Below are positions 1 through 20,112 of a DNA stretch of 64,000 bases, one piece after another. The DNA is from a bacterium (GTDB taxonomy: Bacteria > Babelota > Babeliae > Babelales > RVW-14). Location of the stretch: positions 14,302 to 78,301 of the forward strand of contig JBDRBF010000008.1 of assembly GCA_043822925.1 (NCBI GenBank), read 5' to 3'. Within the stretch, counting starts at the first letter, position 1. Each line of letters starts with the position of its first letter. The notes below the pieces were generated by a model that was given only the letters and a program-made list of their open reading frames with translations, was not told the origin of the DNA and did not search any database. Position numbers and translations under genes: made by a program.

Positions 1-962
1 AATTTTACCGCAAACGAATCACTATCTTTATTACGTCCGCGTTGTGGCCGCGTGCCATTATCAAGTAAGTGTCTATAAACTGGCGCAGCAGTATCAATAA
101 TGCTCGCATTTAGTTCATGCCATTTCATATAGTACAAATCAAACGTCAAATCTTTATATAATTGCGTACTAAATAAAATGCCAGGAGGCGCAAAGCGAAA
201 ACGCTGAAACCCCGCATCCCCTTCCCATCCAAGATACTCAACAGCCAAGTCGTCATGATATCCCATAGAGATACCGCGACCAGCTATATACTTAAAAAAA
301 CCAAGCTGAACAAATGTAGGCCCACCCGTTAAAAATTTTTTAGTTAACGTATCGATATTTATTTTGAACCAGGCTTGAGATGCGTATAATAACGGTATTA
401 ACGGCTTTACTTTAACATCTTTTGCAATTATCGTATCGAGCTCTGGGGAATTAATAGCTGAAACACTAAAAGGCGCATATACCCCATTATTTTGCCAGTA
501 CACATAATTTGTTAACTGAACAAATCCTTCCATGGCTGGCTTGCCATATTTTTTTGTTCCCTGCTCTATCCCAAGATTTATATCAAGACGATGTCTAAAG
601 TACTCAACTTGATCGTAAAAATCATCACGCAACGTGTGTACACGGTCATAATAAAATAAATCTTCCCGAAATTTGCCACCCAAACACATAGTGGCATCAT
701 AACCCTTGAGAAATACGTTACTTTGTATCGTAACATTATTGCCCTGAACTCTTACTATGCCTGTTTGAGCTTTTTCTTTTTTATACTCAGATTCTTGAGC
801 TTCAGCTGCTTGATCTATTTCGTCAGGTTCTTGGCTTAAATCTTCAGACTCTTGAATCTCGTCTGTATCTTCTTGCTGGTCAATCTCAGAATCAGTCTGC
901 GCATACACGCAAGCACTCGATAATACAAATATCAAAAAAAGTTTTTTTAACACGCTCTTCAT
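1..962 (-). CDS. exported protein with acidic N-terminal block, possible outer-membrane barrel; 3' end runs off the window (absent from ORF track)
   Basis: My own minus-strand translation from the ATG (complement of 960-962) stays open to base 1, about 320 codons. AAGGGG Shine-Dalgarno lies 5-6 nt upstream. Signal-like MKSVLKKLFLIFVLSSACVYAQ is followed by the acidic block TDSEIDQQEDTDEIQESEDLSQEPDEIDQAAEAQESE. Then come aromatic/Gly-rich segments such as FFKYIAGRGISMGYHDDLAVEYLGWEGDAGFQRFRF. Confidence 0.6.
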   Translation of the reverse strand, partial: MKSVLKKLFLIFVLSSACVYAQTDSEIDQQEDTDEIQESEDLSQEPDEIDQAAEAQESEYKKEKAQTGIVRVQGNNVTIQSNVFLKGYDATMCLGGKFREDLFYYDRVHTLRDDFYDQVEYFRHRLDINLGIEQGTKKYGKPAMEGFVQLTNYVYWQNNGVYAPFSVSAINSPELDTIIAKDVKVKPLIPLLYASQAWFKINIDTLTKKFLTGGPTFVQLGFFKYIAGRGISMGYHDDLAVEYLGWEGDAGFQRFRFAPPGILFSTQLYKDLTFDLYYMKWHELNASIIDTAAPVYRHLLDNGTRPQRGRNKDSDSFAVK

Positions 963-1007: not shown

Positions 1008-2789
1008 TTATTCTAAAGACGCGCCCTGAGGTTCAAAAATCATAGGCTGCACTGAAACTTCTGGCACCTCTGGTGATACTAAATCTTCTTGAATATCAGA
1101 TTGCTCAGAAACAACAGGCTCAAGAACTTCTTGCGTAATAACAGGCTCAGTAACTTTCGATAATTTCTTATCTACTTTTACGCGTTGCTCAGGCGTTAAA
1201 ATTTGTTTATAAATCTTCTGCCACTGCTCTGCTGTCAATATTTTTTCTATCACATATTGCTGAATAAGAGCTCGTGAAATATCGGGAAGTTTTTTTTCTG
1301 ATATTTTTTGCTCAGGCAATTTTTCTGTTTTAGATTCAAGATCTTGAGCAGGAACTTCTTGAGCAGGAACTTCTGGCACGACAGGTTCTGGCACGACAGG
1401 TTCTGGCACAACAGGTTCTGGCACAACAAGCTCTTGAACAGGAGCTACCGGCTCTTTACGCACCTGTTCTCGCTGCGCCTCTTGCGCTATTTTTAAATCT
1501 TTTTCACTTGGCTTGGCCTGATTACGTGCAAGTACTTTTTTAGTTTGCGTATTAATACCAGACAATAAATAATAACTAATTGTTTTAAAAGCATCTTGCG
1601 TACGAATATCACGCCTATGCAATGTAAGCGTCCAGCGATCAATATCAGAAGCTACAGAAAGTGTAACAAACGCATCATAATAAAATTCAAGTGCTTTTTG
1701 GAACACATACGTAGGACAAGATAAAATGTTCCAGGCAACAGAATCCAAATCAGGAGCTAAATATCGCAAGCCTTCCATTTTCTGGAACGAGACACGTTTT
1801 TTCTCTCCCCGAATAATTGCCCGGATCCGTACCGGACTTTGCACATCTTCGCTATCAACAACTTCTGGAATAATATATGAAGAAAAGGCTTCGCCTTTTG
1901 CCATCAAAAATTTTGCAAAATTATGTTCACGCAACATAATACTTTGCCTACGCCCGAGATGAGATATTCTCACAAAATCTGTTTCAGATCCAGGCACAGA
2001 AAGATACAGAGCCAATGGGAGTGTATTAAAAAATTTATTAACCTCTTTTTCCAACGGGAGTGTTTGCTCAGACAGATCAACAGCACGAATTTGCAATTCA
2101 CGCTTGAGCGTATGTTCTTGCCAATAATTTTTAGATTCATGATTACCGCGCAAGTAAATAAATTTGTCTTTATTTGCTTCCAGCAGTCTCATAGCAATAG
2201 CCATTGTTTCCATAGAGTAACAAGAACGGCTCACAACGTTACCCATAAAAACAATATAATAATCAGGCTTTATAATTTTTAACGTATCATCGATAATCCC
2301 CAGATTTTTTAATTCACCCAGATCACGCACGAGTGAATGGAACGCTGAGTACAAATTACCAAAAACAACTAGCTTACTATTTTCTGTCGTTATAATTTTT
2401 GTAATCACATCGCCTGAAATTTTATCACGCTCGTTGCCGAGATTAATAACAAGCGTCTTAAAAAAACTCGGCGAAAACGCTGGTTCTTTAACCAGAGAGA
2501 TAAGTGACAATAACTTGTAAAATTTATCTTTAATTTTAGAAAAAAACGTTGGAACATATTGTTGATAAAACGTATCAAACACAGGACGCAACGTATTATC
2601 AGTATCAATCTTCACCGTCTCTAGTTTTTGCTGAGCATACGCCTGAATTTCAGGCAAGGTCCTAAAACCAGTTTTATATACAGGACTTGGAGCTAACAAA
2701 AGATATACAAAAAAAACACCTATAACGATACCGGCACCAAGCCACACATTTTTGAAAGTATACGTAATAGCTGTCTTTTTTGCTCTCAT
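1008..2789 (-). CDS. membrane-anchored PPP-family (PP1/PP2A-like) metallophosphoesterase homologue with substituted metal-binding motifs and a Pro-rich C-terminal repeat region
   Basis: The ORF-track frame starts at a GTG (2804), but the ATG at 2789 is preceded by AAAGAGGT, so I prefer 2789 (MRAKKTAITY...). One N-terminal TM helix (WLGAGIVIGVFFVYLLLA). PPP motifs: VVFGNLYSAFHSL (GDxHG position), FMGNVVSRSCYSMET (GDxVDRG position), intact LRGNHES, and ISHLG. C-terminal VPEPV x4 and VPAQE x2 repeats. Confidence 0.75.
   Translation of the reverse strand: MRAKKTAITYTFKNVWLGAGIVIGVFFVYLLLAPSPVYKTGFRTLPEIQAYAQQKLETVKIDTDNTLRPVFDTFYQQYVPTFFSKIKDKFYKLLSLISLVKEPAFSPSFFKTLVINLGNERDKISGDVITKIITTENSKLVVFGNLYSAFHSLVRDLGELKNLGIIDDTLKIIKPDYYIVFMGNVVSRSCYSMETMAIAMRLLEANKDKFIYLRGNHESKNYWQEHTLKRELQIRAVDLSEQTLPLEKEVNKFFNTLPLALYLSVPGSETDFVRISHLGRRQSIMLREHNFAKFLMAKGEAFSSYIIPEVVDSEDVQSPVRIRAIIRGEKKRVSFQKMEGLRYLAPDLDSVAWNILSCPTYVFQKALEFYYDAFVTLSVASDIDRWTLTLHRRDIRTQDAFKTISYYLLSGINTQTKKVLARNQAKPSEKDLKIAQEAQREQVRKEPVAPVQELVVPEPVVPEPVVPEPVVPEVPAQEVPAQDLESKTEKLPEQKISEKKLPDISRALIQQYVIEKILTAEQWQKIYKQILTPEQRVKVDKKLSKVTEPVITQEVLEPVVSEQSDIQEDLVSPEVPEVSVQPMIFEPQGASLE
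1343..1430 (-). repeat. in-frame 15-nt tandem repeats (2 x cttgagcaggaactt, then about 4 x ctggcacgacaggtt) encoding VPAQE / PEPVV units
   Basis: Read directly from the sequence; the unit length is a multiple of 3 and lies inside the 1008..2789 CDS. Confidence 0.9.
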
Positions 2790-2821
2790 TACCTCTTTCC
2801 CCACAAAAAAATAATTTTTTT

Positions 2822-2870
2822 ATAATCTGGCAAACAAGCTATTACCCGCTTGCCAGATTATTTTTTTTTT
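2822..2870. terminator. perfect 12-bp stem-loop (ataatctggcaa / ttgccagattat, 16-nt loop) flanked by an A-run and T10
   Basis: Arms at 2822-2833 and 2850-2861 are exact reverse complements. The T10 run (2861-2870) follows the stem only in the plus orientation. On the minus strand the stem sits directly after the stop of the 612-aa gene but is followed by A7 and then T-rich sequence. Confidence 0.45.
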
Positions 2871-4707
2871 AGAACGAATAATTCATGTTAATATGTGCAC
2901 CAAGGGTCTTAGACATATTGCGACCAGCAAAAACATAGTCTATTCCAGCTCGCAAACGTGAAGATTTATCATATTGATAACTATATTCTGCCCCAATTTT
3001 GTGAGCTACGGCCTGTGAACAAAGTCTATATGGATCAATATTCCATTCTTCGGTTTTAAAACCTGAAAACGTATCATGAGCTTTAACATATAAATCATAA
3101 AAGACGTCTAAGAATGCACGGCGATAAACAAATTTTTCAATCATGTTACCCATACGCGCATTAAATTCTATGCCCTTGCGCATATTAACTGACAATATAT
3201 TGTCGCCAATTTCTTTAAATGGTGCTTCTTCTGCGTCACCCAGTTCGACACCACGTTTTTGAGTTACACGATCACCAAACGTAACGCCTAATAGCTCGCT
3301 TCCAGCATTAACCTCTAATGTCATCTTTTTAGGCACACGTCTATTTACATGCGCATCAGCAAACCCCGTAGCCTGGACAAACATATGTGGATTAAGATAC
3401 TTACTCTTATGCAAACAAATGCCACTAAATAAAGCAATACCCAAGAAACCACCATTGCCAAGTTCAGGAGCCCATAATTTATCACTTGCTCGTTTAGATG
3501 CTGATGGAATTATAATTTTTGCACCAGCAATCATGCTTTCAAAACGAGAAGATTCAAAATTAATATGGGAATATAACTCAACATCACCAAAGCCACTACT
3601 GCTACCACCAAATTCGTTCATGCCTTTGGCTCTGAAAACATCTTTAACAAAATTCTCAAAAGAACCATATTGCAATATCATCTGCATAAAACCATCGCTC
3701 TTGCGCTCATCAATGGTTAATGCAGGTTCTTCAGTACTTATCGTATGTTTTTGATATACAAACGGTATCCGTACACCACAAACAATATTGCGTTTCCATA
3801 AATAACGCGATAAATCAAAATTTATGATGCAATCTTCTGCCTGACCCAAGAAATTAACCTTTTTATAGGCCAAATCTGTTAAATAATTAAAATCTAAACC
3901 ATTTTTAGGCTCAAATTTACCCTCTTTAATCAATTTACTTACAAGCAATAAATCTTTTAATAAAATCGTATTTTCACCAAACGCAAGTCTCGTTAAATCA
4001 CCACTGCCGCCACTATTGCCGTACGCATCAGTTGCATATTTATATTCAAAGCCGACATTAAGCAAATGCTTGAACGGCACATATGTCGCCGGTGTATCCC
4101 ACGCTGGTTGTTTATACAAATCAGAATACATACCTGATTCATAATCATGTGCTACTTCTGCACTGTGCGATTCGGTCCAGCGTGTCACAAGTTTTTCGTT
4201 TTCATGGCGCATTACCAATGTTTGTTTTCTCTTGGCTGCTTCTTTCTTTTTGGCCATCTTTAAAACCATGTCATATTCATGCCGACGGCTATCTCTACGC
4301 GCCTGTCTGCGCTCTGCTCGCTCCTGCTTGCGAACTTGCTTATTCAAGCGAGCTTGCTCTTTCTTGGATTGACGAGTATTTTTCTTTTCTTGAGCTTCTT
4401 TCTTTTTCTCTTTTTTATCTTTTTTAACTTTTTCTGGTTCTATCTGTTCTATTTGTTCTGGATCAGCTAATACTGATTCTATTTGCTCAGGCTCAACTTG
4501 ATCTGGCGCAGCTTGTTCTTGCGCTTCTTGTTCTATTTGTTCTAATTCAACAATATCTTGCTCCAGCACTTCTTGCTCCAGTTGCTCATACTCTGCCTGA
4601 TCTTGTTCTATTTGTTCTGGTTCATCAAAATCTGGCTCAGCTGAAGCAATAACAGTGCCACTAGCCAGCAGCATAACAAAAATAAATTTTCCAAATAATT
4701 TGTTCAT
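2869..4707 (-). CDS. exported protein: signal peptide, about 90-aa acidic EQ-repeat block, about 70-aa K/R block, then a putative outer-membrane beta-barrel domain
   Basis: 612 aa. Signal-like MNKLFGKFIFVMLLASGTVIASA. EQIEQ/PEQIE repeats are followed by KKDKKEKKKEAQEKK...RRQARRDSRR. The C-terminal roughly 420 aa have alternating aromatic/Gly segments and end ...GAHINMNYSF (terminal Phe, as in many OM barrels). AGGGAGAAAG RBS lies in the 18-nt gap after the upstream gene. Confidence 0.6.
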   Translation of the reverse strand: MNKLFGKFIFVMLLASGTVIASAEPDFDEPEQIEQDQAEYEQLEQEVLEQDIVELEQIEQEAQEQAAPDQVEPEQIESVLADPEQIEQIEPEKVKKDKKEKKKEAQEKKNTRQSKKEQARLNKQVRKQERAERRQARRDSRRHEYDMVLKMAKKKEAAKRKQTLVMRHENEKLVTRWTESHSAEVAHDYESGMYSDLYKQPAWDTPATYVPFKHLLNVGFEYKYATDAYGNSGGSGDLTRLAFGENTILLKDLLLVSKLIKEGKFEPKNGLDFNYLTDLAYKKVNFLGQAEDCIINFDLSRYLWKRNIVCGVRIPFVYQKHTISTEEPALTIDERKSDGFMQMILQYGSFENFVKDVFRAKGMNEFGGSSSGFGDVELYSHINFESSRFESMIAGAKIIIPSASKRASDKLWAPELGNGGFLGIALFSGICLHKSKYLNPHMFVQATGFADAHVNRRVPKKMTLEVNAGSELLGVTFGDRVTQKRGVELGDAEEAPFKEIGDNILSVNMRKGIEFNARMGNMIEKFVYRRAFLDVFYDLYVKAHDTFSGFKTEEWNIDPYRLCSQAVAHKIGAEYSYQYDKSSRLRAGIDYVFAGRNMSKTLGAHINMNYSF

Positions 4708-4725: not shown

Positions 4726-7700
4726 TTAAGATATCGTACCATCTTGATTAATAGTAAAATGTGATCCATTTTTTCTGTGTGCATCAATAACAATCTTCTG
4801 TGCCCCTGTCGCGCTCACAATAACTCTATCTTGTTCAATAACATCTGTCGCAAGCAGATCAACAATCACTCCCTTAACTGTTCGTATTTTACGAGACACA
4901 GAACCGGGAAGAGTATATTCAATAGAGCCATTGGTCAAATTGCTATTTATGTTAATAAAATATTTCGCAATATCAAGAGCATAAACAGACGAAGAAGATG
5001 TAAACGGTATTGATTTATTTTGAATCTGAGCAGCCTCAATACCTTGATAATATCCTGAAACATCTTGGCTTACTGGGCGGGATACAAATTCAAATGTTGC
5101 ACCAGATTCTGCTTCTATAACAGGACCCTGAAAAGATGTTTTTACTTCTGTCTTTAAACGAGCTGAATGAACTTCGTTAATACCCCAAGATATTTTTCCG
5201 TTTTTACCAACAATAAGCTTTGATCCCGTTTTAAATATCGCCGACTCGATATACCCACGTGTTAACTGATCACCCAAAGATCTAAGAACTGGAAGCTCAC
5301 TCTTATCGTTAACAGAAAATTCACCATCAAGCACTTGTAATGTTGATCCTGATTCAAACGTAAAATTACCAGTACCAAGACCAGTTGTAACACTACTTCC
5401 AGAACCGATACGCCATATTGCACCAGCTTGAAGAAACACAATAATATCATCACTATCGCATGGCCATAAGTGTAAACCGCCACTTGCTGGCTCAATATTA
5501 CCAGCACATACAAGTTGGCCTACTCCCGTAATAAACGCTTTTCCAGTATCAAGCACACGCAACTGAACATCCGGACCGATATCAAAACTTGCCCGATCAG
5601 TAATTGTAAACATCTTACGACCCTGGACAACGCCATCTTCTACTTTATTACCCTTCATATTAATTACAGCACCATCAGCAAATTCAATAATTCCTGTACC
5701 TCTAAATCTAATAACCGCATTTGCTTCTAAATCAAGTTGCGTTGCACTGGCAAACCGAAACACAGGTGTATCAGCAACGCCAGATTTTACGAATTCAACA
5801 ATTAATTCTGCCCCTGGCGCAACTCTAAAGTTATCGTTCACCTCAAAAAGCCGCGATACTTTAAGCGTAATTACTTTACGATCTGCTTTATCAATATTTA
5901 TGTATTGATTTGGCGCCAAACGTACATCTTGAGTAAACGCTTGCTCCAATACGGCTCCATTTTTAAGTGTAAGATTAAACGCAGAACCACCAATAACGCT
6001 TTCGCCCAATGCATCGATAGTATATTCGTTCATAAAGTTGGTTGCTTTTGCTCCATCAAGTTCTATGTTGCCCTTGACATACTTATCGAACCGAACATCT
6101 TTACGATACGTCGTATCAAAAGCGGCAGGAAGAACCAAAGCTCTCGATGCGAGAACAAAAGCTTCATCAAGACCATTTAAATCTATATCTCGTTGATTCA
6201 AATCTACTTTATCTAGATCTTCTAGATCTTCTAGATCTTCTAGCAAAACAGGAAGCCCTCGCAACATTTTATGTTTTTTATTTTTACTTATTTTTTGTAC
6301 CAGTTTTTTATCAGTTTTTTGTATTTGCTTTTGTTCTGACTTTGTGTTTTTTATTGGGTTTATCTTAATTTTATATTTGTTAAGCTTGGCAAGTTCCTGC
6401 GCTTGTTTAACGACTTTTTTTGCATAAGCTGTAACTGCAAATTTCTCATTTTTTTTACTTCGTCTCATTCTTATAAATGATGGATCTAGACCCTGCCCAG
6501 TTATTTTTTCAGCACTTAACCTAAACTGAGCAGACTGTTGTTTTATTGGATAATCAAGAACTTCAAACTCTTGAACATCCAAGAAAGAATTTTTATCTAC
6601 AATAAATGCATTTGCATTTGTATTACGTATTGAAATTGATGGGTCAGGAAAAATTAACCCAGCCGTACTCAACCTTTCCAAGCCTAAAGTTCCAGTGTCT
6701 GACGTCAAATAAATACCTGTATCTCCATCAAAGATTATTAATGGATTACCAGCTTTAACACCAGCACGATCACCAACAGTAACGACATCATATGATATAG
6801 GATCAATAAGAGAAAAACGCATTATTAATTGATTCGTTGCCGCATTACCAAAAAAAGAAATCGCCCCAGAAAGAGTAATCGCGTCATTCAAAAATATTAA
6901 TTCATTATTAATGCCCTCTATATCAAAATTTATACTCGTATCTTGAGAAACTGGAACAGTGGCATTTCCACCGATCAAAAGAGAAGCTGAATCATCATGC
7001 GTAATAAATTCTAACCCATCAAACTCAACATTTTGCAATACAAGCGTTCCACCACCCAAGTCCATTAACTTACTTACGCCATCAGCTGGACTCAAAACCA
7101 TCTTCTGTTTACCGCTCAAGCCACATACAGTAAAAATATTGTCAGTTCCAGCAATCACCAATTTCCCATTTGTCAGCGTAAGTTCCTGACTTAATTCAAA
7201 AGTAACATCTTGACCAATCTGAATCTGTGATCCTTTCCCCATACTAAAAGTATTTGCATTTATTCTAGAAAACGTAATATTTTCCAAAAGAACAGAATCA
7301 CCTGGAGAAACAATAAATTGTGGTTCGGGCTGATCTGCAAAAGTAACAACCGTGCCTCCACCATCAATCGTAATATTATTCTCAATAGTTATCGTCTGAC
7401 CGGGAGCAATATCAGCATTTGAAGTTAACTGTGTGTTTGCAACCAAAGGCTGATCAACCAACGCACCAGAAGATGAATTTCCGCCTGATGATTTATCCCC
7501 GACTTCTTTGATTATTCCATCAGGCCCAATTGCTAAAAAACCTGCTGCTTCATTTGCCAAAACATTCGCATTACTTAAAACATGTCCAACAAATAACGGA
7601 TTCGGCGCTTTTATTTGTCCGGCGCCCCTATAAACATCAAGCCATAAACGATCATTAACCGAGAGCAAACTTGTACCAGCAAACGTCCAATTATTATCTT

Positions 7701-8637
7701 TTAATAAAATAGTCGTGCACCCGTCAATAATATAATTACCAACAAGAGTCGTTACATTACCATCTAGATCCAACGTAACGTTATTTAAATATATTTTGCC
7801 GCCAGCTGTATCAAAAATAATTTTGCCTTTGCTAACAGCATCTGCAAGACCCTTAATATACACGTCGTTAAGATATAACGCTCCTGTTGCGCCACTAACA
7901 GTAATTGACCCGCCATCAGACAAATCAAGAATAGCTCCGCGACCGTTAATGACACTCTTGCCATTAAATGTCCATGCACCAGTTAGAGCTATATTCCCAT
8001 TAAGCACAACATCTGTTGCCCCAACAAACGTTACATCTGTATCCCAAGAGTTAGAGCTCGCATAGTAACCGCCCAAAGATAACTGTTGCTGATTAAGATC
8101 AATAATTCCAGGACCTTTAATTTGAACATCGTCAGATAAATTAAGATTATCGCTTAACGTCAAAGTGCCACTATTTAAATTAATATCTTTATTTAACGCA
8201 CTTTGTATGCCAAGCGTTAATGCTGTTGACGAATTTGCAAGATTAAGAGCACTTGAAAAAGTTGGCTGACCTTCAATTTTGTTTCCAGTCCCACTGATAT
8301 AAACCTGCTTAGCTAATGTGCCAGGCTCAAAACGCAAATAACCTGAACCATTAAGCGTTACCGTATCATCGCCTGTTGGATCATACTGAGCGGTCATGAG
8401 CGCCTGTGATCCAGCACTTTCAAGAACCCCCTCATTAAATTCAAACGTATTTCCCGTTATAGCGCCAGAACCTGACTGAACCAATGTCCCATCAAAACTT
8501 AACCCTGGGCAAGCTATATTAAAAGTTCCAGAAGAAACTTTAATAGCCGAATTTCTATTTCCAAAATTGATATCAGAAAAAAGATCTGTCACAAGGGGTA
8601 CTAATAAAAAGACTAATACACGTAAAAGTTTCTTCAT
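4726..8637 (-). CDS. giant exported protein (1303 aa), Gly/Asn/Thr-rich beta-helix-like N-terminal half, K-rich linker, conserved C-terminal half; paralogue of 8790..12590
   Basis: Signal-like MKKLLRVLVFLLVPLVT. Long uninterrupted ORF with a GGGAGAG RBS. Full-length similarity by eye to the upstream gene, e.g. SISIRNTNANAFIVDKNSFLDVQEFEVLDYPIKQQS against SISIRNANSNAFITDANSFLQVQELEVLDYPIKQQS. No C-terminal aromatic residue. Confidence 0.8.
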   Translation of the reverse strand: MKKLLRVLVFLLVPLVTDLFSDINFGNRNSAIKVSSGTFNIACPGLSFDGTLVQSGSGAITGNTFEFNEGVLESAGSQALMTAQYDPTGDDTVTLNGSGYLRFEPGTLAKQVYISGTGNKIEGQPTFSSALNLANSSTALTLGIQSALNKDINLNSGTLTLSDNLNLSDDVQIKGPGIIDLNQQQLSLGGYYASSNSWDTDVTFVGATDVVLNGNIALTGAWTFNGKSVINGRGAILDLSDGGSITVSGATGALYLNDVYIKGLADAVSKGKIIFDTAGGKIYLNNVTLDLDGNVTTLVGNYIIDGCTTILLKDNNWTFAGTSLLSVNDRLWLDVYRGAGQIKAPNPLFVGHVLSNANVLANEAAGFLAIGPDGIIKEVGDKSSGGNSSSGALVDQPLVANTQLTSNADIAPGQTITIENNITIDGGGTVVTFADQPEPQFIVSPGDSVLLENITFSRINANTFSMGKGSQIQIGQDVTFELSQELTLTNGKLVIAGTDNIFTVCGLSGKQKMVLSPADGVSKLMDLGGGTLVLQNVEFDGLEFITHDDSASLLIGGNATVPVSQDTSINFDIEGINNELIFLNDAITLSGAISFFGNAATNQLIMRFSLIDPISYDVVTVGDRAGVKAGNPLIIFDGDTGIYLTSDTGTLGLERLSTAGLIFPDPSISIRNTNANAFIVDKNSFLDVQEFEVLDYPIKQQSAQFRLSAEKITGQGLDPSFIRMRRSKKNEKFAVTAYAKKVVKQAQELAKLNKYKIKINPIKNTKSEQKQIQKTDKKLVQKISKNKKHKMLRGLPVLLEDLEDLEDLDKVDLNQRDIDLNGLDEAFVLASRALVLPAAFDTTYRKDVRFDKYVKGNIELDGAKATNFMNEYTIDALGESVIGGSAFNLTLKNGAVLEQAFTQDVRLAPNQYINIDKADRKVITLKVSRLFEVNDNFRVAPGAELIVEFVKSGVADTPVFRFASATQLDLEANAVIRFRGTGIIEFADGAVINMKGNKVEDGVVQGRKMFTITDRASFDIGPDVQLRVLDTGKAFITGVGQLVCAGNIEPASGGLHLWPCDSDDIIVFLQAGAIWRIGSGSSVTTGLGTGNFTFESGSTLQVLDGEFSVNDKSELPVLRSLGDQLTRGYIESAIFKTGSKLIVGKNGKISWGINEVHSARLKTEVKTSFQGPVIEAESGATFEFVSRPVSQDVSGYYQGIEAAQIQNKSIPFTSSSSVYALDIAKYFININSNLTNGSIEYTLPGSVSRKIRTVKGVIVDLLATDVIEQDRVIVSATGAQKIVIDAHRKNGSHFTINQDGTIS
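6212..6243 (-). repeat. 9-nt in-frame tandem repeat (tctagatct x3.5) encoding LEDLEDLEDLD
   Basis: Read directly; each unit contains overlapping TCTAGA/AGATCT palindromes; lies inside the 1303-aa CDS just after its K-rich linker. Confidence 0.9.
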
Positions 8638-8789: not shown

Positions 8790-11700
8790 TTAAATTAGTT
8801 TGCCATCTTCATCATAAGCTCTCAATTCGCCTTTGGAAGACCGTACTATGATTTCAATTTTATTTGTTTTCTTATTTTCTCGCACTTCAGGAATGTCTCC
8901 TGAATTAAGCGTGATAGTTACTCCATGATTCGTTCTTACACAAGAAGTACCCGAGACCTGCTCATAATACAAAACGCCATATTGAGTAAATGTTGTATTT
9001 TTTTGCGAAAGAAATATCGCAAGTTTTTCAAATGTCATCTGAGAATCAATTAAAGCTTTAGCTACTGGTCTTTGCACCCTAGCAACAAAACCTTTATATG
9101 ATTCTTCTTCTGCTGGACGATCAACATATTCAATCAGACCATCACCATCAATATTAAGCGGCTCCCACTTAATATTAAATGGCTTTTCAAGTCGTACTTG
9201 GTCACTTATTATTGTATTACGCCCCAAAACAAGTTTGCCTCCAACATGAACATACGAGTTGCCATCGATAATTAATTGTGAAAAATCTCCACGCTTTAAC
9301 TGATTCCCAAATGGACTTCTTATTGCAGGACTACTTACGTCGTTAAATGCAAATGTGCCGTTCTGTTCAATAAGCAAACTTGAATCATGCAACGTCCAAC
9401 TCGATTTACCCAGTCCAGTTGCTATGATTTTAGAATCTGCAACACGTATAGATGCATTATCAAAAACATACGTAATATTATCGTCAGCATTTGGATTAAG
9501 ATAAATATTCCCCTCTATTGCATTTAATAATCCAGAATTCCAAAGCGCTTTGCCGACACCGGTCAAATAAATAATCTGGGCACCAAGTGCAGGAGCAAGA
9601 GAGCCTCTATCATAAAACTGTATTGTTGAAATATTTGGCCCCTGACCAACAAGTTTTAACTCTGCTTTATCTCCTAGCTCTACTGGAATCGTCGCGCCAA
9701 AATACATGTTCTGACCCAATGTAATAACAGAATTATCTTTTATACGAACCATAGGATCTTGAGAGCCAACACGCAGCCCCTGAAATATAACTGATTTCTG
9801 TAAATCAAAATTTGCATCACCAAACTCAAATAAACCTGTTACATTAACAATATTATTCTCACCTGAAAATCTAAAAACTTGTCCAGAAGCAAGAGATGCT
9901 TGAACGGGTAAAAATATATTTGCTTTATCGGCCAAAATATCAAAAGAACTAAAACCAATAGATCCAATCTTAAAACGAGAACTCGCTCTACCATCAAATT
10001 TTAAATTCCCACTCGGATCATTAATTTCTAACTCGTTACGATATATCACATCATAAGAAGTTGGCGCTTCTGGAAGAACTCTCTCTATATCAAAATCAAA
10101 GCTACGCGTTGCTATATTTTTTTTCTGTTTTTTTATATTTTTTTTAGTCTGTTTCTTATCTTGCTTTTTATCTTGCGGAGTATCTTGTTTTTTAACGGGC
10201 TGCGTATCTCGCTCCAAAGCTCCTAAGCCAAAACTATTCTTACTTCGCATCCGAGCAAAAGCACTCTTACGCCGCACAAAAGCTTTTCCCTTTTTTTTCA
10301 TACGAACATAAGAAGAATCTATCCCTTGGCCAGAAATTTTTTCAGATATAAGATCAAAATCTACCGACTGCTGCTTAATTGGATAATCAAGAACCTCCAG
10401 CTCTTGAACCTGTAAAAACGAATTCGCATCAGTAATAAAAGCATTTGAATTTGCATTACGAATGCTAATAGATTTATCAGAAAAGACAAGGCCAGCCAAA
10501 CTAGAACCTGAATCAGAACTATCTGTTAAATAAATACCAGGGTCACCCGTTAAAATAAATAATGGATTTCCTGGCAGCACACCAATTCTACGAGAAGAAT
10601 CAGCGAGTAAAGAATAAAGAGAAAATCGAATCGTTAGCTCATTTAAAGCGGCAATTCCGGAAAAAGCTATTGAACCAGAATATTCAAGCGCATCCTGCTT
10701 AATAACAATTTCATTATCGCTGCCCTCTATGTCAAAATTCAAACTCGTGTCACCATCAAGGGCTACCGATGAATTACCAGAAAGCGCGATAGAAGAATCA
10801 CTTTCCCCAATAAAATTCGCTACCCCCTCAAGTTCAATATTTTGTAAAACAAGAGACCCATAATTTAAATCAAAGCGCTTAGCTCTGTCGGGTGATTTAA
10901 ATGTTACTTTTTTCTTACCACCTATTCCACGCATACATACAACATTAGAAGCTCCATCTATCACAAATTTGCCAGACGTAAAAGTTACATCTTGGTCAAA
11001 CTCAAAAAGAACATTTGAACCTAAATAAACTTCACTTCCAGCATCCAAACGAAATGTTCCAGCATTTATACGAGAAAAAACTATATTTTCTAAAATTACT
11101 TTTTTCCCTGAATGAACAATAAATTGTGGTGTATCCTGATGAATAAACGTAATCACTGAACCTCGACCATCAATCGCCACATCAGCATCAACACTAATCG
11201 TCTGAACCGGCGCAAGAGTTACTCCTTTATCAAGCAAAACATCGCTTGTAATTGGAGTATCAACAAGCGTTACGTCAGAAATAGATTGACCAATAGAACG
11301 ATCTGCGACTTCCAAAATAAAACCATCAGGCCCGATTTCAAGATTTCCACTTGCTATATCTAAATTTACATTATCTACACTCAATACATGCTTAAGAAAC
11401 AAAGGCAATGGCGCATTAATTTGCCCTGAAGCATCACTAATAGGAAACACAAAAGTATATAAATTTAAACGACTATTCACTCTCAAAACAGATAAGCCAT
11501 CAAAATTCCAATTTTTAGTTCGCAAAGCGATCGTCGAATCTGACTCAACCTCAACAATCCCCTTATTCATAGTAAAGTCACCAGACAGTTCAACGTCAGC
11601 TCCATTTAAACAAAGCGTTGAAGTCCCAGATTGAAAAACAATTTTACCATCTATATTACTTAGACCCTTGACGGTAATGTTCTCTAAGCGCAATGTCACG

Positions 11701-12590
11701 CCGGGTTTTATAATAAGTTGCCCTCCACCAGACAAATCAAGAACCGCTCCATTACCATTAATTTTTGAATCGTCTTCAAATGTCCAATAACCAGTCACAT
11801 TAATATTACCATTAAGTGTTATGCTCCGTGCATTCTGAAACGTTATGTCTGTCCCCCAAGCACTTGTATAAATGCCCCCTAAATATAGGGTATACCCAGC
11901 AACATTAACATCACCAGGCCCTTCTATAAACGTATCATCAGTTAACTTAAGATCGTCACCCAATGTTAATAAACCACCATGAAGCTCAATATTTTCGTTA
12001 TATGCATTTTGAATAGCTATCGTTAATTCTGCGCTAGAATCAGTAAACACAATTTTTTGACCAGGATTAAACCGCCCTGAAACTCTATTACCAGACCCCG
12101 TAACACTTATATCAACGCCCGTTTCCGCCCGACTTACTGCTGGACTACGAGATGAAAAACTGCGTGTACCAAAAATAAACCCTGAATCAGACGGGTTAGA
12201 CTCTATTTGCGTATCGCCGATAAACTTTATGTATGTTTCTTTTTCTGGATCAAGATCACACTTATCCACACCAAGAGCCACCCCCTCTTGCGTCAAAATC
12301 CCGTCATTAAGCGTTACTATTTCACCACTAACGCCAGTTACAGGATCTGGCAAACGAGTACCATCAGCTGAAAAACGAGTTCGCGAACCAGCTTTGGGCA
12401 AAGTAATCGTGATAGTTTTTAACGATTGATTTGGCTGCGTAATATTCATACGACCATTACGAACATCAATTCCTGAAGACCTATTTGCACTATTGAGCTT
12501 TTTAGCAACAAAACGACGCGCACTTACTCTTGTTGTACTTATTAACTGCAAAAGCACCATAATCAATAATAATTTTTTTGGAACCTTCAT
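8790..12590 (-). CDS. giant exported protein (1266 aa from preferred start), paralogue of 4726..8637
   Basis: The ORF-track frame begins at 12608, but the ATG at 12590 is preceded by GGAG 5 nt upstream and gives MKVPKKLLLIMVLLQLISTTRVSA (signal-like). Same architecture as its neighbour, including the K-rich linker KKQDTPQDKKQDKKQTKKNIKKQKKN. Confidence 0.8.
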   Translation of the reverse strand: MKVPKKLLLIMVLLQLISTTRVSARRFVAKKLNSANRSSGIDVRNGRMNITQPNQSLKTITITLPKAGSRTRFSADGTRLPDPVTGVSGEIVTLNDGILTQEGVALGVDKCDLDPEKETYIKFIGDTQIESNPSDSGFIFGTRSFSSRSPAVSRAETGVDISVTGSGNRVSGRFNPGQKIVFTDSSAELTIAIQNAYNENIELHGGLLTLGDDLKLTDDTFIEGPGDVNVAGYTLYLGGIYTSAWGTDITFQNARSITLNGNINVTGYWTFEDDSKINGNGAVLDLSGGGQLIIKPGVTLRLENITVKGLSNIDGKIVFQSGTSTLCLNGADVELSGDFTMNKGIVEVESDSTIALRTKNWNFDGLSVLRVNSRLNLYTFVFPISDASGQINAPLPLFLKHVLSVDNVNLDIASGNLEIGPDGFILEVADRSIGQSISDVTLVDTPITSDVLLDKGVTLAPVQTISVDADVAIDGRGSVITFIHQDTPQFIVHSGKKVILENIVFSRINAGTFRLDAGSEVYLGSNVLFEFDQDVTFTSGKFVIDGASNVVCMRGIGGKKKVTFKSPDRAKRFDLNYGSLVLQNIELEGVANFIGESDSSIALSGNSSVALDGDTSLNFDIEGSDNEIVIKQDALEYSGSIAFSGIAALNELTIRFSLYSLLADSSRRIGVLPGNPLFILTGDPGIYLTDSSDSGSSLAGLVFSDKSISIRNANSNAFITDANSFLQVQELEVLDYPIKQQSVDFDLISEKISGQGIDSSYVRMKKKGKAFVRRKSAFARMRSKNSFGLGALERDTQPVKKQDTPQDKKQDKKQTKKNIKKQKKNIATRSFDFDIERVLPEAPTSYDVIYRNELEINDPSGNLKFDGRASSRFKIGSIGFSSFDILADKANIFLPVQASLASGQVFRFSGENNIVNVTGLFEFGDANFDLQKSVIFQGLRVGSQDPMVRIKDNSVITLGQNMYFGATIPVELGDKAELKLVGQGPNISTIQFYDRGSLAPALGAQIIYLTGVGKALWNSGLLNAIEGNIYLNPNADDNITYVFDNASIRVADSKIIATGLGKSSWTLHDSSLLIEQNGTFAFNDVSSPAIRSPFGNQLKRGDFSQLIIDGNSYVHVGGKLVLGRNTIISDQVRLEKPFNIKWEPLNIDGDGLIEYVDRPAEEESYKGFVARVQRPVAKALIDSQMTFEKLAIFLSQKNTTFTQYGVLYYEQVSGTSCVRTNHGVTITLNSGDIPEVRENKKTNKIEIIVRSSKGELRAYDEDGKLI

Positions 12591-12843
12591 TACTCCGTTC
12601 TCCCTCATTCAAAAATACAAAAAATATAAAAATTACATGCCTAACAGTTAAATACACACATAATAATCACAAATACTTTTGTGCTATTTTAATTTCTTCT
12701 CTAAATTCCCCAAATAAAAGCCTCAGCACCAACTATGCTAATTGTGCCGAACAAACGCCCACCATTTATACGACATTCTCCCTTTTTTATTCAGGCTAAT
12801 GTCCTCATTTCTATATGTCAACAATTCCCTACTACGCAAGTAT

Positions 12844-13558: not shown

Positions 13559-13915
13559 CTAAACCCATTCAAGACGGGCAATAGGAGCTGTGTCGCTCAT
13601 ACGACGACCAAGTAATATAACACGCGTATATCCTCCAGGTCTGCCGACATACTTAGGTGCAATTTCTTTGATCATTTTAGTAACTGCTTTAGCATCATAT
13701 GGCAACAATTGTTTAATACGACGAATCGTATTAAAATCGTATCCCTCACGAGAGAGCGTAACGATTTTTTCAACCATTTTTTGAACTACTTTTACATGAG
13801 TCTTTGTTGTTTGTAAGCAACCATAATTAATAAAGTGAATAATTTGATTTCTCAAAATCGCTTTTCTATGGCCGCTCTTTAGATTGAGCTTTTTTCTACC
13901 ATTTTGGTGATTCAT
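13559..13915 (-). CDS. rplQ: 50S ribosomal protein L17
   Basis: 118 aa; MNHQNGRKKLNLKSGHRKA... bL17-type N-terminus; last gene of the alpha operon, with a 4-nt overlap with rpoA. Confidence 0.95.
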   Translation of the reverse strand: MNHQNGRKKLNLKSGHRKAILRNQIIHFINYGCLQTTKTHVKVVQKMVEKIVTLSREGYDFNTIRRIKQLLPYDAKAVTKMIKEIAPKYVGRPGGYTRVILLGRRMSDTAPIARLEWV

Positions 13916-14973
13916 GACTTCTTGGTTCCTTCCTGTTGCTTGATCGCTTTTTTCAAATCTAATTCCTTGATGTTCATCCCCAAATGCAAGCCAAATGCAC
14001 CAAGAATTTCTTTCACTTCACGCAAAGATTTGCGACCAAAATTTTTAATTTTCAAAACATCTTCATCAGTAAGATTTACCAAATCGATAACACGTTTTAT
14101 GCCCGCACCGACGAGACAGTTATGAGCTCTAACTGAAAATTCTAATTCATCAATTGATTTCAAAAACAAATCAACTGGTAAACCTTTTGTTGGCCCTTGG
14201 AGATCAGTTTGTGCTTCTTTTTCAGCTTCTTCGTCTACTTTTTTAGAAATTTCATTAAATGGAATTTCAGCTGCAGACAAAAAGTGTTCAAATTGCGTTC
14301 TTAATACAGATGTCCCGTAATGAATAACATCTTTCGGCTCGACAACTCCATTAGTTTGAATCTTCAATGTAAGTTTATCGTAATCGATAGCTTGTCCAAC
14401 ACGAGTTTTTTCAACATGAAATTCAACACGCTTAATAGGCGAGAACATCGCATCTAAATAAATACGGTCATCAGCCTGAAGAGCTTGTCCTTTTGGCCAT
14501 TGAGCCGCAAGATACCCTCTGCCTGTTTCCACAAAAAACTCTATTTCTAATTCTCCGTCAGTAGCCAAATGAGCAAGAATGTGCTCTGGATTCAAAAGTT
14601 CAAGATGTTCGTCTGCATTAATATCAGCAACTTTTGCAACACCTTCGCCTTTGACAGAAAGACGCATTTTGCCCGACTCTCCGGTTTTATTTGAAATAAC
14701 AATTTCTTTAATATTTAAAAGCACATTCAAAACGTCCTCAGTCACTCCTTTAATCGCTGAATACTCATTATTAACCCCCTTAATAATCACAGAGGTTACT
14801 GCAGAGCCTTCAACAGAAGAAAGAATAACTCGACGCAACGCATTACCAAGCGTTATGCCAAAGCCAGGTTCAAGAGGCTGAACAATCAACTCTCCATAGG
14901 TCGGCGACGACACCTTTTTCTCCCAACTCAAACTTGGAGATATCAACGGTTTATAGGTTCTCTGCATCCACAT
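13912..14973 (-). CDS. rpoA: DNA-directed RNA polymerase subunit alpha
   Basis: 353 aa; GITLGNALRRVILSS N-terminal-domain motif; C-terminal domain LEFSVRAHNCL...IKNFGRKSLREV; located between rpsD and rplQ. Confidence 0.95.
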   Translation of the reverse strand: MWMQRTYKPLISPSLSWEKKVSSPTYGELIVQPLEPGFGITLGNALRRVILSSVEGSAVTSVIIKGVNNEYSAIKGVTEDVLNVLLNIKEIVISNKTGESGKMRLSVKGEGVAKVADINADEHLELLNPEHILAHLATDGELEIEFFVETGRGYLAAQWPKGQALQADDRIYLDAMFSPIKRVEFHVEKTRVGQAIDYDKLTLKIQTNGVVEPKDVIHYGTSVLRTQFEHFLSAAEIPFNEISKKVDEEAEKEAQTDLQGPTKGLPVDLFLKSIDELEFSVRAHNCLVGAGIKRVIDLVNLTDEDVLKIKNFGRKSLREVKEILGAFGLHLGMNIKELDLKKAIKQQEGTKKS

Positions 14974-15010
14974 TCCTCTAAGCTACTTTTCACCAACATC
15001 CAACAGAGCT

Positions 15011-15634
15011 TTACTTAGAATACAATTCAACAATTAAGTGTTCTTCTATCGGAGCTGTAATATCTGAACGAATAGGCAATCTAAGAACAGTCCCTGTTCT
15101 ATCTTTTTTATTAAGCTCAAGCCATTCAGGAACACGAAGACCCATATTCATTTTCTTGTCAACAACATTCGCCAAGAAAACTTTTTTGTTAAGAGAACTA
15201 TCTGAAAGAGTAACAACATCGCCTTCATTTACTAAAAATGATGGTGATTTTACCCGTTCCCCATTAACATAAATATGACCATGAACAACCATCTGACGAG
15301 CCTGAACTCTTGAAGTTGCTAATTTTAATCGCGCAATAACGTTATCTAATCGACGTTCCAATAAGCTCAAAAGTGTTTCTCCAGTAACTCCCTTTTGACG
15401 GGAAGCAAGTTCAAAAAAACGTTGAAATTGCTTTTCGAGAACTCCGTACATAAACTTTACTTTTTGCTTTTCTTGAAGCTGTCTTCCATATTCAGATGAC
15501 TTTTTCACTGAAGATTTTTTACCATGTTGTCCTGGGGTCAGTGGCCTTTTTTCAAGAACACACTTAGGACCTTTAGAACAAAGCTTAACTCCAGTTTGCC
15601 GACATCTTTTACATCCGGATAATTTTTTTCCCAT
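15011..15634 (-). CDS. rpsD: 30S ribosomal protein S4
   Basis: 207 aa; N-terminal Cys cluster CKRC..C..C; S4 domain RRLDNVIARLKLATSRVQARQMVVHGHI. Confidence 0.95.
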   Translation of the reverse strand: MGKKLSGCKRCRQTGVKLCSKGPKCVLEKRPLTPGQHGKKSSVKKSSEYGRQLQEKQKVKFMYGVLEKQFQRFFELASRQKGVTGETLLSLLERRLDNVIARLKLATSRVQARQMVVHGHIYVNGERVKSPSFLVNEGDVVTLSDSSLNKKVFLANVVDKKMNMGLRVPEWLELNKKDRTGTVLRLPIRSDITAPIEEHLIVELYSK

Positions 15635-15702
15635 AATCCTACCAACAATTTACTACTAAGTAACTACCAAAATTATTATACAAAAACCTACGCTCTTATG
15701 CG

Positions 15703-16086
15703 TTACATTCTTCTTTTCTTAGCAGGCCTACATCCATTATGAGGAAGCGGCGTCACATCTCGCAATACCGTTACCATCAATCCAGTTGCCTGCAAACCTC
15801 TAATCACAGAATCCCGTGAAGACCCCGGACCTTGCATATTGACTTCAACTACTTTTACGCCAAGAACTTGTAATTCTTTGCCTAATTTTGTAGCTATTTG
15901 TGTTGCCGCGAAAGGAGTCCCTTTACGAGCTCCTTTAAAACCCAATTGTCCTGAACTTCCACGCATTACAACGTCACCGTCCATCGTAGTAATAGTTACA
16001 AGCGTATTATTAAAAGAAGATTTAACATGCGCTAAAACAGAATCTACGTTTTTATATTGCTTTTTCTTACTCTTTTTATATGCCAT
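15703..16086 (-). CDS. rpsK: 30S ribosomal protein S11
   Basis: 127 aa; ...GFKGARKGTPFAA...DVTPLPHNGCRPAKKRR uS11 pattern. Confidence 0.95.
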   Translation of the reverse strand: MAYKKSKKKQYKNVDSVLAHVKSSFNNTLVTITTMDGDVVMRGSSGQLGFKGARKGTPFAATQIATKLGKELQVLGVKVVEVNMQGPGSSRDSVIRGLQATGLMVTVLRDVTPLPHNGCRPAKKRRM

Positions 16087-16118
16087 TATGTACCCTGGTT
16101 ACTGGTTAGTTGATAAAT

Positions 16119-16508
16119 CTATTTCTTAGTAACAACCTTTTTAAGAGCAACTGCCCCACCAGCTTTTCTGGGACCTTTTCTCGTTCTTGCATTAGTCTTA
16201 GTACGTTGCCCCCGAACTGGCAAAGATCTCTTATGCCGAGTTCCTCGATAAGAACCAATCTCTTGAAGTCGTTTAATATTCAACGTAACTTCTTTTCGCA
16301 AACCACCTTCTATAACAAAAAACTTTGTTATAAATTTTTGAATTGCAGCAACCTGTTCATGAGTTAAATCTTTTATACGTACATCTGGACTAATGCCAGT
16401 TTCTTTTAAAATATCGTGAGATCTTGCAAGGCCAATGCCATACAAATACGTCAATCCGATTTCTACACGCTTTTCATTTGGAAGAAGTACACCCTCAATA
16501 CGAGCCAT
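16119..16508 (-). CDS. rpsM: 30S ribosomal protein S13
   Basis: 129 aa; [26 protein letters not shown]... uS13 pattern. Confidence 0.95.
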
Positions 16509-16565
16509 TAAAAAACCTCTCTGCTCAAATAAAAACTTACAACAATTTTCATCATAAACAAGTCA

Positions 16566-16682
16566 TTAACCTTGACGCTGTTTGTGGCGTGGTTGTTTTT
16601 CACATAACACACGAACAACTTTACCACGTTTAACTATTTTGCAATGTCCACATATTTTTTTTACGGAAGTTCTTACCTTCAT
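16566..16682 (-). CDS. rpmJ: 50S ribosomal protein L36
   Basis: Not in the ORF track (38 aa). My translation of the minus strand gives [38 protein letters not shown], a canonical bL36 with the C-x2-C...C...H pattern, located between infA and rpsM. Confidence 0.9.
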
Positions 16683-16711
16683 GGTTCAATTCTCTTTTCT
16701 ATCTAAATGTT

Positions 16712-16933
16712 TTATTTATAACGAGAAATAATTCGTCCCTTTGTTAAATCATAAGGGGAAAGCTCAACAGCAACCTTGTCCCCTGGTAAAAGACGAATAT
16801 AATGCATACGCATTTTACCTGAAACATGCGCCAAAATTACGTGCCCGCCATCTATCAATTTCACTTGAAATACAGCATTCGGCAAAGCTTTTTCTACAAT
16901 CCCATCCATCAATATTATATCAGCTTTTTTCAT
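16712..16933 (-). CDS. infA: translation initiation factor IF-1
   Basis: 73 aa; [31 protein letters not shown]1-like IF-1 pattern. Confidence 0.95.
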
Positions 16934-16957
16934 AACACCTTCTTTTGGCTATCTCCC

Positions 16958-17716: not shown

Positions 17717-17750
17717 AATTTTCAGCTAGAAAACCTTAAATAAACGATTC

Positions 17751-19082: not shown

Positions 19083-19527
19083 TTACCTCAATTAAGAGGA
19101 CCTTACCCTTTGCCTTTTCTATTGCTTGAATTGCTGATTTACTGTAGGCGTCGACCATTACTGTTAATTTTTTTGTTAAAGTCCCTTTGCCTAATATTTT
19201 AATTGGAGAAATTTTCTTGCCCCGTATAAGAGCTTTTTCCATTAAACTATTTCTATCAACAGTATCCCCATCTGAAAACCTTAATTCCAAATCTTGTAGA
19301 TTTACAATTTGATAAGTTTCTCTAGAAAAATTAGTAAATCCTCGTTTTGGAATACGTCGAGCCAAAGGCATCTGTCCACCCTCGAAGAAAGATCTGAATT
19401 GAGTCGTTCCTCCAGAGCGAGCCCGCTGTCCCTTATGCCCACGACCTGACTGACCACCCCGTTCACCACCTCTTCCAATACGTTTTCTTTTTTGCGATAT
19501 GGATTCTAATTTATCAAGCTTTAACAT
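19048..19527 (-). CDS. rplO: 50S ribosomal protein L15
   Basis: Start placed at the internal ATG (MLKLDKLESISQKRKRIGRGGERGGQSGRGHKG), typical of uL15. It follows rpsE directly, with no rpmD in between. Confidence 0.9.
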   Translation of the reverse strand: MLKLDKLESISQKRKRIGRGGERGGQSGRGHKGQRARSGGTTQFRSFFEGGQMPLARRIPKRGFTNFSRETYQIVNLQDLELRFSDGDTVDRNSLMEKALIRGKKISPIKILGKGTLTKKLTVMVDAYSKSAIQAIEKAKGKVLLIEVSEEKTSGSVAS

Positions 19528-20065: not shown

Positions 20066-20112
20066 CGTACTCTTTCCCGCTATCTAAAAATTATTTAGCT
20101 TAAAGTCAATTT

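Follow-up and report, generated by a model that had tools for sequence, protein, structure and literature searches.

Non-catalytic calcineurin-like folds are used as scaffolds in the retromer subunit Vps29 and, as B subunits, in DNA polymerases alpha, delta and epsilon. These subunits retain the Metallophos fold, have lost the metal ligands and serve as platforms for binding other proteins. Closer to the PPP phosphatases themselves, the kinetoplastid PPP pseudophosphatases (kPPP and a PP2B-like cluster) are predicted proteins in which catalytically important residues are substituted, and a non-catalytic role was proposed for them (PMC2175518). A comparable state is described here for a gene at positions 1008-2804 (minus strand) of a 64,000-nucleotide stretch of contig JBDRBF010000008.1 from a bacterium of the order Babelales, the whole of this stretch being called the window below. 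Its PPP-like product is probably, as we read it, an inner-membrane-anchored, non-catalytic periplasmic adaptor with a PPP fold, which would lack the two-metal centre and carry a disordered proline-rich tail of about 165 residues with a short helix near its end. Unlike this protein, Vps29 and the polymerase B subunits belong to other branches of the superfamily (not PPP with a SAPNY motif), are cytosolic or nuclear and have no tie to a membrane, and the kinetoplastid pseudophosphatases are cytosolic and eukaryotic, with no membrane anchor, envelope context or coupling to channels or binding proteins described. The principle of a dead phosphatase fold acting as a scaffold is already known; what is new is the periplasmic, anchored placing of the fold, how large the bacterial family is, and its tie to channels, binding proteins and an outer-membrane pore. 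PPP pseudo-phosphatases have so far been predicted only in a few eukaryotic parasites, whereas here they would form a large periplasmic family in bacteria, with hundreds of clusters at 50% identity.

On the side of the channels, binding-protein domains fused to bacterial ion channels of the pentameric ligand-gated kind (pLGICs), or encoded in the same operons, are also known, as PBP-I domains (type I periplasmic-binding protein, PBP) are fused to the pLGIC N-terminus and genes for PBP-II or Cache domains occur in pLGIC operons (Tasneem et al. 2004, PMC549065), and the N-terminal domain of DeCLIC is an accessory periplasmic module of a prokaryotic pLGIC (PMC9897478). The family of the window protein resembles these modules in that a periplasmic solute-binding or extra domain is attached to the channel by fusion or operon. 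It differs from them because the extra module is a PPP fold, placed after M4 of the channel or provided in trans with an anchor of its own, and bears the binding domains C-terminally; the window gene differs further in having no channel neighbour. Neither Tasneem et al. (PMC549065) nor Jaiteh et al., in their inventory of pLGICs, mention a phosphatase-fold partner of these channels. In addition, the literature searched (Dependentiae with phosphatase, pLGIC with Dependentiae, and pLGIC accessory domains with metallophos), which was covered incompletely, contained neither a description of this PPP-like family nor a paper linking pLGICs with Dependentiae.

The open reading frame (ORF) comprises 598 residues when counted from the GTG at 2804, and this count is used for residue numbers throughout. 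The true start is more probably the ATG at 2789, which is favoured over the GTG by the G/A-rich stretch preceding it and by the resulting length of 593 residues, equal to that of the identical NCBI protein (P0001). That entry is annotated 'MAG: metallophosphoesterase [bacterium]', a name that is probably misleading across the whole family.

Fold and active site of the PPP-like protein

The eukaryote-type PPP fold put forward in the original prediction is borne out by Pfam, phmmer, hhalign and a structural model, which all agree, and the resemblance greatly exceeds what chance would give. Pfam Metallophos (PF00149) matches residues 170-281 with 27.5 bits, against a gathering cut-off of 21.5, and phmmer against PDB sequences finds the catalytic subunit of PP2A (E=2.5e-5), pairing FMGNVVSRSCYSMET...LRGNHES with FMGDYVDRGYYSVET...LRGNHES. 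A profile built from 118 relatives reaches PP2A, BSU1, PP1, PP5 and rdgC in the PDB at 1e-7 to 1e-5, from motif I through the F..LPLA motif, and hhalign of the family against PP1alpha (a query sequence identical to 1FJM_A at 330 of 330 positions) gives 97% probability, with residues 138-268 placed on PP1 52-165, where the local mode ends. Moreover, the AlphaFold2 (AF2) model made from the family alignment has a predicted local distance difference test score (pLDDT) above 90 across residues 10-430, and the top 50 PDB matches of this model in Foldseek are all eukaryote-type PPP catalytic subunits (PP5, PPZ1, PP1, PP2A and calcineurin), with E-values down to 2e-12, 330-370 aligned columns and a target-normalised template modelling (TM) score of about 0.6. 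Matches to Thioredoxin_7 (E=0.2) and to the proline-rich region of MisL (E=6.5e-4; cut-off 1297 bits) were set aside as noise or low complexity, and those to PrpE and Pnkp as remote Metallophos relatives.

Besides the fold, the protein shares with PP1, PP2A, PP5, PPZ1 and calcineurin A the order and spacing of the motifs, the GNHE sequence, the SxET start of a helix, the F..LPLA motif and a SAPNY-like SCPTY. The distance from motif II to motif III, earlier given as 33 positions by an inclusive count, is 32 residues from G188 to G220, exactly as from G91 to G123 in PP1 and without gaps, and the S-x-ET is likewise placed as in PP1. The SAPNY motif of the eukaryote-type enzymes (268-272 in PP1), which follows the penultimate core strand, is aligned with SCPTY (residues 362-366, 1707-1721 on the minus strand, as are all features of the gene given below), which is partly degenerate (A to C, N to T); the Ser and Pro of this motif are kept in 99% and 94% of the family. 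However, identity to these phosphatases is only 16-20%, D64, H66, D92 and H248 are replaced in the window protein, and the RG motif (R221) is missing. The protein also differs from the eukaryotic PPPs in its membrane anchor, predicted periplasmic placing, about 100 extra residues before motif I and proline-rich tail, and the genetic partners of its family are envelope proteins instead of kinases and regulatory subunits.

All the strings on which the pseudo-phosphatase claim had been built (GNLYS, GNVVSRS, LRGNHES with its GNHE, and ISHLG) are present in the ORF. Motif I, GNLYS (residues 149-153, 2346-2360), lies within VVFGNLYSAFHS (residues 146-157) and corresponds to GDIHG of PP1; in the hhalign pairing, D64 becomes N150, H66 becomes Y152 and G67 becomes S153, and the GDxHG pattern is broken. 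Motif II, GNVVSRS (residues 188-194, 2223-2243), lies within FMGNVVSRSCYSMET (residues 186-200) and corresponds to GDYVDRG, with D92 replaced by N189, D95 by S192 and G97 by S194; R96 is kept (R193), and GDxVDRG is broken as well. Meanwhile, motif III is intact, its GNHE (residues 220-223, 2136-2147) pairing N124 with N221, H125 with H222 and E126 with E223. The profile alignment leaves the motifs unshifted and no canonical Asp or His is regained, in agreement with the proposed replacement of the metal ligands by N, Y and N and of the second Asp of motif II by S.

In the C-terminal half, hhalign forced into global mode, with low local confidence, places SHLG (residues 281-284, 1953-1964; ISHLG being 280-284) on the CHGG of PP1, which puts H282 on H173, and also places G345 on G254 and SCPTY on SAPNY; H282 is probably the equivalent of H173. 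H248 falls on I330, when RAI (residues 328-330, 1815-1823, at the end of strand 326-331) is taken as the probable match to the RAH of PP1 (246-248), or on S339 in the ungapped hhalign register. In neither candidate column nor in their neighbours was a conserved His seen, as His occurs at 330, 331, 332 or 339 in 12 of 236 relatives. The H248 ligand, a position that the original prediction had not considered, is also lost, and the window protein thus lacks four of the six metal ligands, with N124 and the probable H173 remaining. In addition, no conserved RG, which contains the phosphate-binding R221, is found in the family alignment. The old pocket keeps R193, N221, H222, E223 and H282, and may offer a polar or anion-binding surface instead of a catalytic centre.

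The Dependentiae family and the envelope genes linked to it

Relatives number 126 among 5.8 billion proteins, and when 1.84 billion cluster representatives are searched exhaustively with a profile, 603 are found at E<=1e-30. The taxa named for them are candidate division TM6, Dependentiae or Babeliales, with a few metagenome-assembled genomes bearing doubtful 'Pseudomonadota' or 'Campylobacterota' labels. Ligand columns were counted in 236 aligned relatives, and further alignments comprised 118 sequences and the 33 closest relatives. At the D64 column Asp is found in 112 sequences (47%) and Asn in 70, the rest being Thr, Val, Glu, Ala, Pro or Ser; the H66 column holds Gln in 154, His in 42 (18%), Phe in 13 and Tyr in 6; the D92 column has Asp in 126 and Asn in 100; and that of N124 has Asn in 118 (50%), with 15 further residue types. 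His is kept in 79% at the H125 column and in 76 sequences (32%) at the H173 column, the latter also showing Asp (38), Asn (24), Pro (21) and others, and the H248 column, taken at residue 330, is aliphatic in about 88% of sequences (Ile 158, Leu 31, Val 18).

Thus, the most frequent residue in a ligand column accounts for 32-65%, and 6-17 residue types are found per column, Pro, Val, Ala, Leu and Lys among them; the complete ligand set is found in none of the 236 relatives and the complete M1 site (D, H, D) in seven. P0109 is an example of a relative whose motifs are nearly canonical. At the same time, the structural neighbours G63, G67, G91, G123, E126, G254, S268 and P270 are conserved at 92-100%, and the near-invariant residues specific to the family (H156, S157, R160, R193, S194, W228, W358 and D377) are all present in the window protein. 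E223 and E334-K-K-R337 are also counted among the residues invariant in the family. Ligand columns that are free while their structural neighbours are fixed point to a pseudo-phosphatase family, in which the fold has been selected and the catalytic centre released, and the catalytic loss first proposed for a single protein is now predicted family-wide. A homologous fold, the loss of catalytic residues and a protein under selection, by which a pseudoenzyme is defined, occur here together.

Whether orthologues keep the N/Y/N/S substitutions, as had been asked, receives a divided answer. A non-canonical state is general, with a family consensus of N/D, Q, D/N and S/D/N at these four positions and a subfamily consensus of G-N-x-Q-G ... 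G-D-x-x-S-R-S, but Tyr152, Ser153 and Asn189 are peculiar to the window protein, as Tyr occupies the H66 position in only those 6 of 236 relatives and Ser the G67 position in 1 of 118. Judged from the alignments, the window protein is more degenerate than its own relatives.

The main functional clue to the family is the tie, by operon and by fusion, of the PPP-like gene to pLGICs and binding proteins, as seen by comparing 30 loci, of which 21 come from GTDB species genomes, 8 surround individual relatives and one is the window itself. The usual order is a binding protein, a pLGIC, the PPP-like protein and, in the clade with unfused genes, a fourth gene named c3, with gaps of -4 to +20 nucleotides in most loci. 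The product of the first gene is secreted and is a periplasmic-binding protein of type I (Peripla_BP_6, E=1.6e-20). The second (c1) encodes about 365 residues without a Pfam match, its profile matching the proton-gated channel GLIC (E=2.5e-12) over the Pro-loop and M1-M4, with a consensus FPFxD loop and the M2-M3 signature 'P-x-V-G-Y..T..D'. In 25 of the 30 loci this pLGIC gene either immediately precedes the PPP-like gene or is fused to it, and in one more it lies 5 kb away. In the triple fusions P0111 (971 residues) and P0176 (1113 residues; locus L027, 6864-10205), which come from two organisms and are 41% identical over their full length, the pLGIC, the PPP-like domain and a binding protein are joined in one chain, in the order of a signal or anchor helix (TM0), the extracellular domain, M1-M4, the PPP-like domain with no added helix, and the binding-protein domain.

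Other relatives are giants, such as P0123 (3020 residues, seven binding domains) and P0160 (2821 residues, six), as well as P0185, P0132, P0134 and a protein at locus L028 (8609-12274). Each has a single PPP-like domain at its N-terminus, behind which up to seven Peripla_BP_6 or ANF_receptor domains stand in tandem, forming chains of solute-binding domains on one anchor. Tandem PPP-like domains were considered for these giants and rejected, as a domain-only hidden Markov model (HMM) finds exactly one in each and the extra stretches are Peripla_BP_6 repeats. Two or three tandem pLGIC/PPP-like units per genome occur in L021, L025 and L028, which indicates a paralogous expansion of the module. 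The operon of locus L024 is intact except that two ORFs, of 232 and 283 residues, make up its PPP-like orthologue (1600-2788), a split that may reflect a frameshift, a sequencing error or a pseudogene. Genes with Ank, RING and WD40 domains flank the operon in L001 (12486-14844) and L003 (1-5528), consistent with a host-associated lifestyle.

Regarding the membrane topology, the single N-terminal transmembrane helix with basic residues before it is confirmed: the window protein has one hydrophobic segment, residues 20-38 (2691-2747), with a Kyte-Doolittle value of 2.46, five Lys/Arg ahead of it and an AF2 helix at residues 3-37, for which an N-in/C-out orientation is predicted. In the family, exactly one hydrophobic segment stands ahead of the domain in 162 of the 236 relatives, with mean net charges of +3.3 (N-flank) and -0.35 (C-flank). 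Together with this positive-inside bias, the C-terminal fusions to binding proteins (one to seven Peripla_BP_6 domains in 84 of the 236, nearly always with no membrane segment between) and the fusions directly after M4 without an extra helix support the predicted periplasmic side for the domain. As the C-terminus of pLGICs is extracytoplasmic, a PPP-like domain directly following M4 in P0111 and P0176 would be periplasmic. In the window protein, the region conserved in the family and predicted to be periplasmic spans residues 40-432 (1509-2687) and comprises an N-terminal helical extension and the PPP fold.

The remaining residues, 433-598 (1011-1508), form a tail rich in E, P, V, Q and K that is modelled as disordered, with a weak helical stretch at 509-548 common to the closest relative, P0002. 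Its four PEPVV units are a real tandem repeat of 15 nucleotides (3.9 copies at 1371-1428), adjoined by two EVPAQ units at 1342-1374, so that the repeats together extend over 1342-1428. The tails of unfused relatives have a median of 131 residues, are rich in P, Q, A, K and E without conservation of sequence, and often end in a short amphipathic helix. A spanning of the periplasm is plausible, considering a long disordered proline-rich tail before a short helix and an outer-membrane barrel as the product of the next gene.

That next gene is c3, which in the unfused clade encodes 700-830 residues with a signal peptide and of which the window holds the 5' part (1-962, minus strand, 320 codons). 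It begins 45 nucleotides past the stop codon of the PPP-like gene, with an AAGGGG stretch preceding its start, and a consensus scan found no terminator-like site between the two genes. The full protein from the same contig, P0238, has 750 residues, is 100% identical over the 320 residues of the window, and has a signal peptide and a C-terminal ..YKF. As the partial c3 of the window matched nothing in the protein search, probably because of its acidic low-complexity N-terminus, the full-length orthologue from L026, the locus of P0002, was used instead. Pfam Alginate_exp is matched by 8 of 12 c3 orthologues (best E=2.6e-7), the AF2 model of c3 shows long antiparallel strands (predicted TM score 0.77), and Foldseek places the 18-strand AlgE first in the PDB (E=4.7e-17), with MOMP, chitoporin and porins of the OprD family after it; these results therefore identify c3 as an outer-membrane channel. 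In the window, c3 is found directly downstream of the PPP-like gene, as in the unfused operons, and no pLGIC is found upstream of the gene or fused to it.

Proposed role and alternative explanations

In typical members, the adaptor would sit beside the periplasmic domain of the channel, carrying or docking one or more solute-binding proteins, and its proline-rich tail may extend to the outer-membrane barrel that the next gene encodes. In the lineage of the window and L026, where the genes for the binding protein and the channel are no longer adjacent, only the link to the barrel gene persists, and the PPP-like protein would most likely act as a periplasmic tether or partner of the barrel. A wider arrangement is put forward tentatively, in which the pseudo-phosphatase might be an auxiliary subunit of an undescribed trans-envelope receptor-channel apparatus in Dependentiae: the AlgE-like pore would admit a solute, the one to seven binding domains would capture it, the PPP domain, docked beside the periplasmic domain of the pLGIC, would present these binding domains to the channel, and the tail would reach the pore.

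The family offers a candidate accessory subunit for bacterial pLGICs, of which few physiological ligands and partners are known, and, if this is true, it would be the first one with a phosphatase fold and a bacterial precedent for scaffolded receptor-channel complexes. For the Dependentiae, which are uncultured or host-dependent parasites, the module may be a major route to sense or take up host metabolites. The triple fusions P0111 and P0176 are natural constructs for cryo-electron microscopy and electrophysiology. The window gene itself is an atypical, partner-less member, which tempers its weight in relation to the finding for the family.

Some observations weigh against a non-catalytic adaptor. 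The residues of the former active site, N150, Q152, R193, N221, H222 and E223, are nearly invariant in the 33 closest relatives, so the pocket is under selection, leaving room for ligand binding or an altered chemistry, and three of the four M2 ligands are kept in 47 of the 236 relatives. The equivalences proposed for H173 and H248 come from the low-confidence global hhalign and a secondary-structure register rather than from superposed coordinates. Moreover, tblastn and six-frame HMM searches found no pLGIC or binding-protein homologue within the 64-kb window, and the adaptor role of the family may not apply to this gene; that its tail may touch the barrel is suggested by gene order alone.

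The near-invariant pocket also speaks for an alternative in which the PPP-like domain has remained an enzyme but with a changed centre, namely a mono-metal or differently liganded hydrolase of a periplasmic phospho-compound (nucleotides, phospholipid head groups or phosphorylated sugars) using Asn, Gln or Tyr as ligands. GNHE with its general-acid His is intact, R96 and the probable H173 are kept, and Asn is accepted as a metal ligand in this superfamily, N124 being an example. Likewise, the change of D95 to Ser is not diagnostic by itself, since ApaH-like PPPs tolerate the loss of this Asp (PMC2175518). However, an altered enzyme is unlikely, as the four lost ligands include the His and the Asp of site 1 as well as the bridging Asp, the H248 position is hydrophobic in most of the family, and the diversity of residues in every ligand column is unlike that of a conserved alternative centre. 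The window protein deviates even from the consensus of its subfamily (Q152 to Y, G153 to S and D189 to N).

The same deviation can be read as drift. In that case the gene would be a functionless relic in this lineage, degenerating after the loss of its channel and binding-protein partners, neither of which is found at the locus or elsewhere in the 64-kb window; no close relative has a motif I as degenerate as this one, and the orthologue in L024 is split in two. Nevertheless, this gene is not decaying: its 598-codon ORF is intact in a genome of 37% GC, the modelled fold keeps a pLDDT above 90 over residues 10-430, relatives at about 50% identity exist and the invariant residues of the family are all retained. 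In addition, L026 keeps the rearranged order with an intact gene and c3, although its PPP-like protein is only 52% identical, and the close spacing to c3 is maintained, which makes a relic rather improbable.

It is very improbable that the protein is a host-directed mimic, an exposed or secreted PPP decoy with which a parasite inside cells would bind the PPP regulators or substrates of its host. The closest structures are indeed all eukaryotic PPPs, a SAPNY-type motif is present, and many eukaryote-like domains occur in Dependentiae, with Ank, RING and WD40 genes near loci of this family. On the other hand, a stable N-terminal membrane anchor is conserved across the family, the partners in the operons and fusions are binding proteins of the periplasm, a channel of the inner membrane and a barrel of the outer membrane, and no secretion signal or effector context was seen. 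Finally, the TonB-like character earlier ascribed to the tail stands for its composition and layout, with an inner-membrane N-terminal anchor and a proline-rich periplasmic spacer (PEPVV x4) beside an outer-membrane protein encoded immediately downstream, but a TonB-like energy transducer coupling the inner membrane to an outer-membrane transporter is scarcely to be expected and, as homology, largely refuted, because neither Pfam nor NCBIfam shows a TonB C-terminal domain or family match, no ExbB/ExbD genes occur in the window region or the related loci compared, the anchor helix VWLGAGIVIGVFFVYLLLA lacks the His-containing motif carried by TonB anchor helices, a globular domain of 390 residues separates anchor and spacer, and the barrel is AlgE/porin-like rather than a 22-strand plugged TonB-dependent transporter.

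Surroundings of the gene in the window

Upstream of the PPP-like gene, at 2869-4707 (minus strand), a protein of 612 residues is encoded, with a signal peptide, acidic E/Q-rich repeats, a Lys/Arg-rich stretch and a C-terminal half with the ending ..NMNYSF, typical of outer-membrane barrels; it has no match in Pfam or NCBIfam. Among the 30 loci, a homologue (58% identity) is found only in L026, again upstream of the PPP-like gene. A hairpin at 2822-2861 (minus strand) separates the two genes of the window, with a perfect stem of 18 bp, a folding free energy of -25.7 kcal/mol (z -7.9 against shuffled sequences) and an A/T-rich T-run after it. It was missed by the consensus terminator scan, spotted by eye and confirmed by folding, and is probably the intrinsic terminator of the 612-residue gene; its position between the two genes suggests that the PPP-like gene and c3 form their own transcription unit.

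Further upstream, two paralogous giant proteins with signal peptides, 34% identical and without Pfam matches, are encoded at 4726-8637 and 8790-12608 (both minus strand; 1303 and 1272 residues). Other members of their family ('c2') lie near the PPP-like operon in many Dependentiae loci, usually downstream and on the opposite strand, and some show faint WD40/beta-propeller matches. In L026, the locus of P0002 (52% identity), the homologue of the 612-residue protein and a relative of the giants are likewise followed by the PPP-like gene and then c3; since this locus shares the derived gene order of the window, the order reflects a rearrangement at the level of the clade and not an accident of assembly.

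Core genes lie at 13912-21066 and 29431-31515 (both minus strand), namely rpoA, rpsD, map (Peptidase_M24), secY, rpsE, rplF and the gene for EF-G, and the window is therefore part of an ordinary bacterial chromosome and not of a mobile element. The GC skew is negative in all 2-kb bins from 1 to 64000 (-0.12 to -0.32), the GC content is 34-41% and the minus strand carries most of the large ORFs; the entire window belongs to a single replichore and has a strong strand bias. A tRNA-Gly(GCC) gene at 52858-52932 (plus strand) is the sole match of Rfam and ARAGORN in the window.

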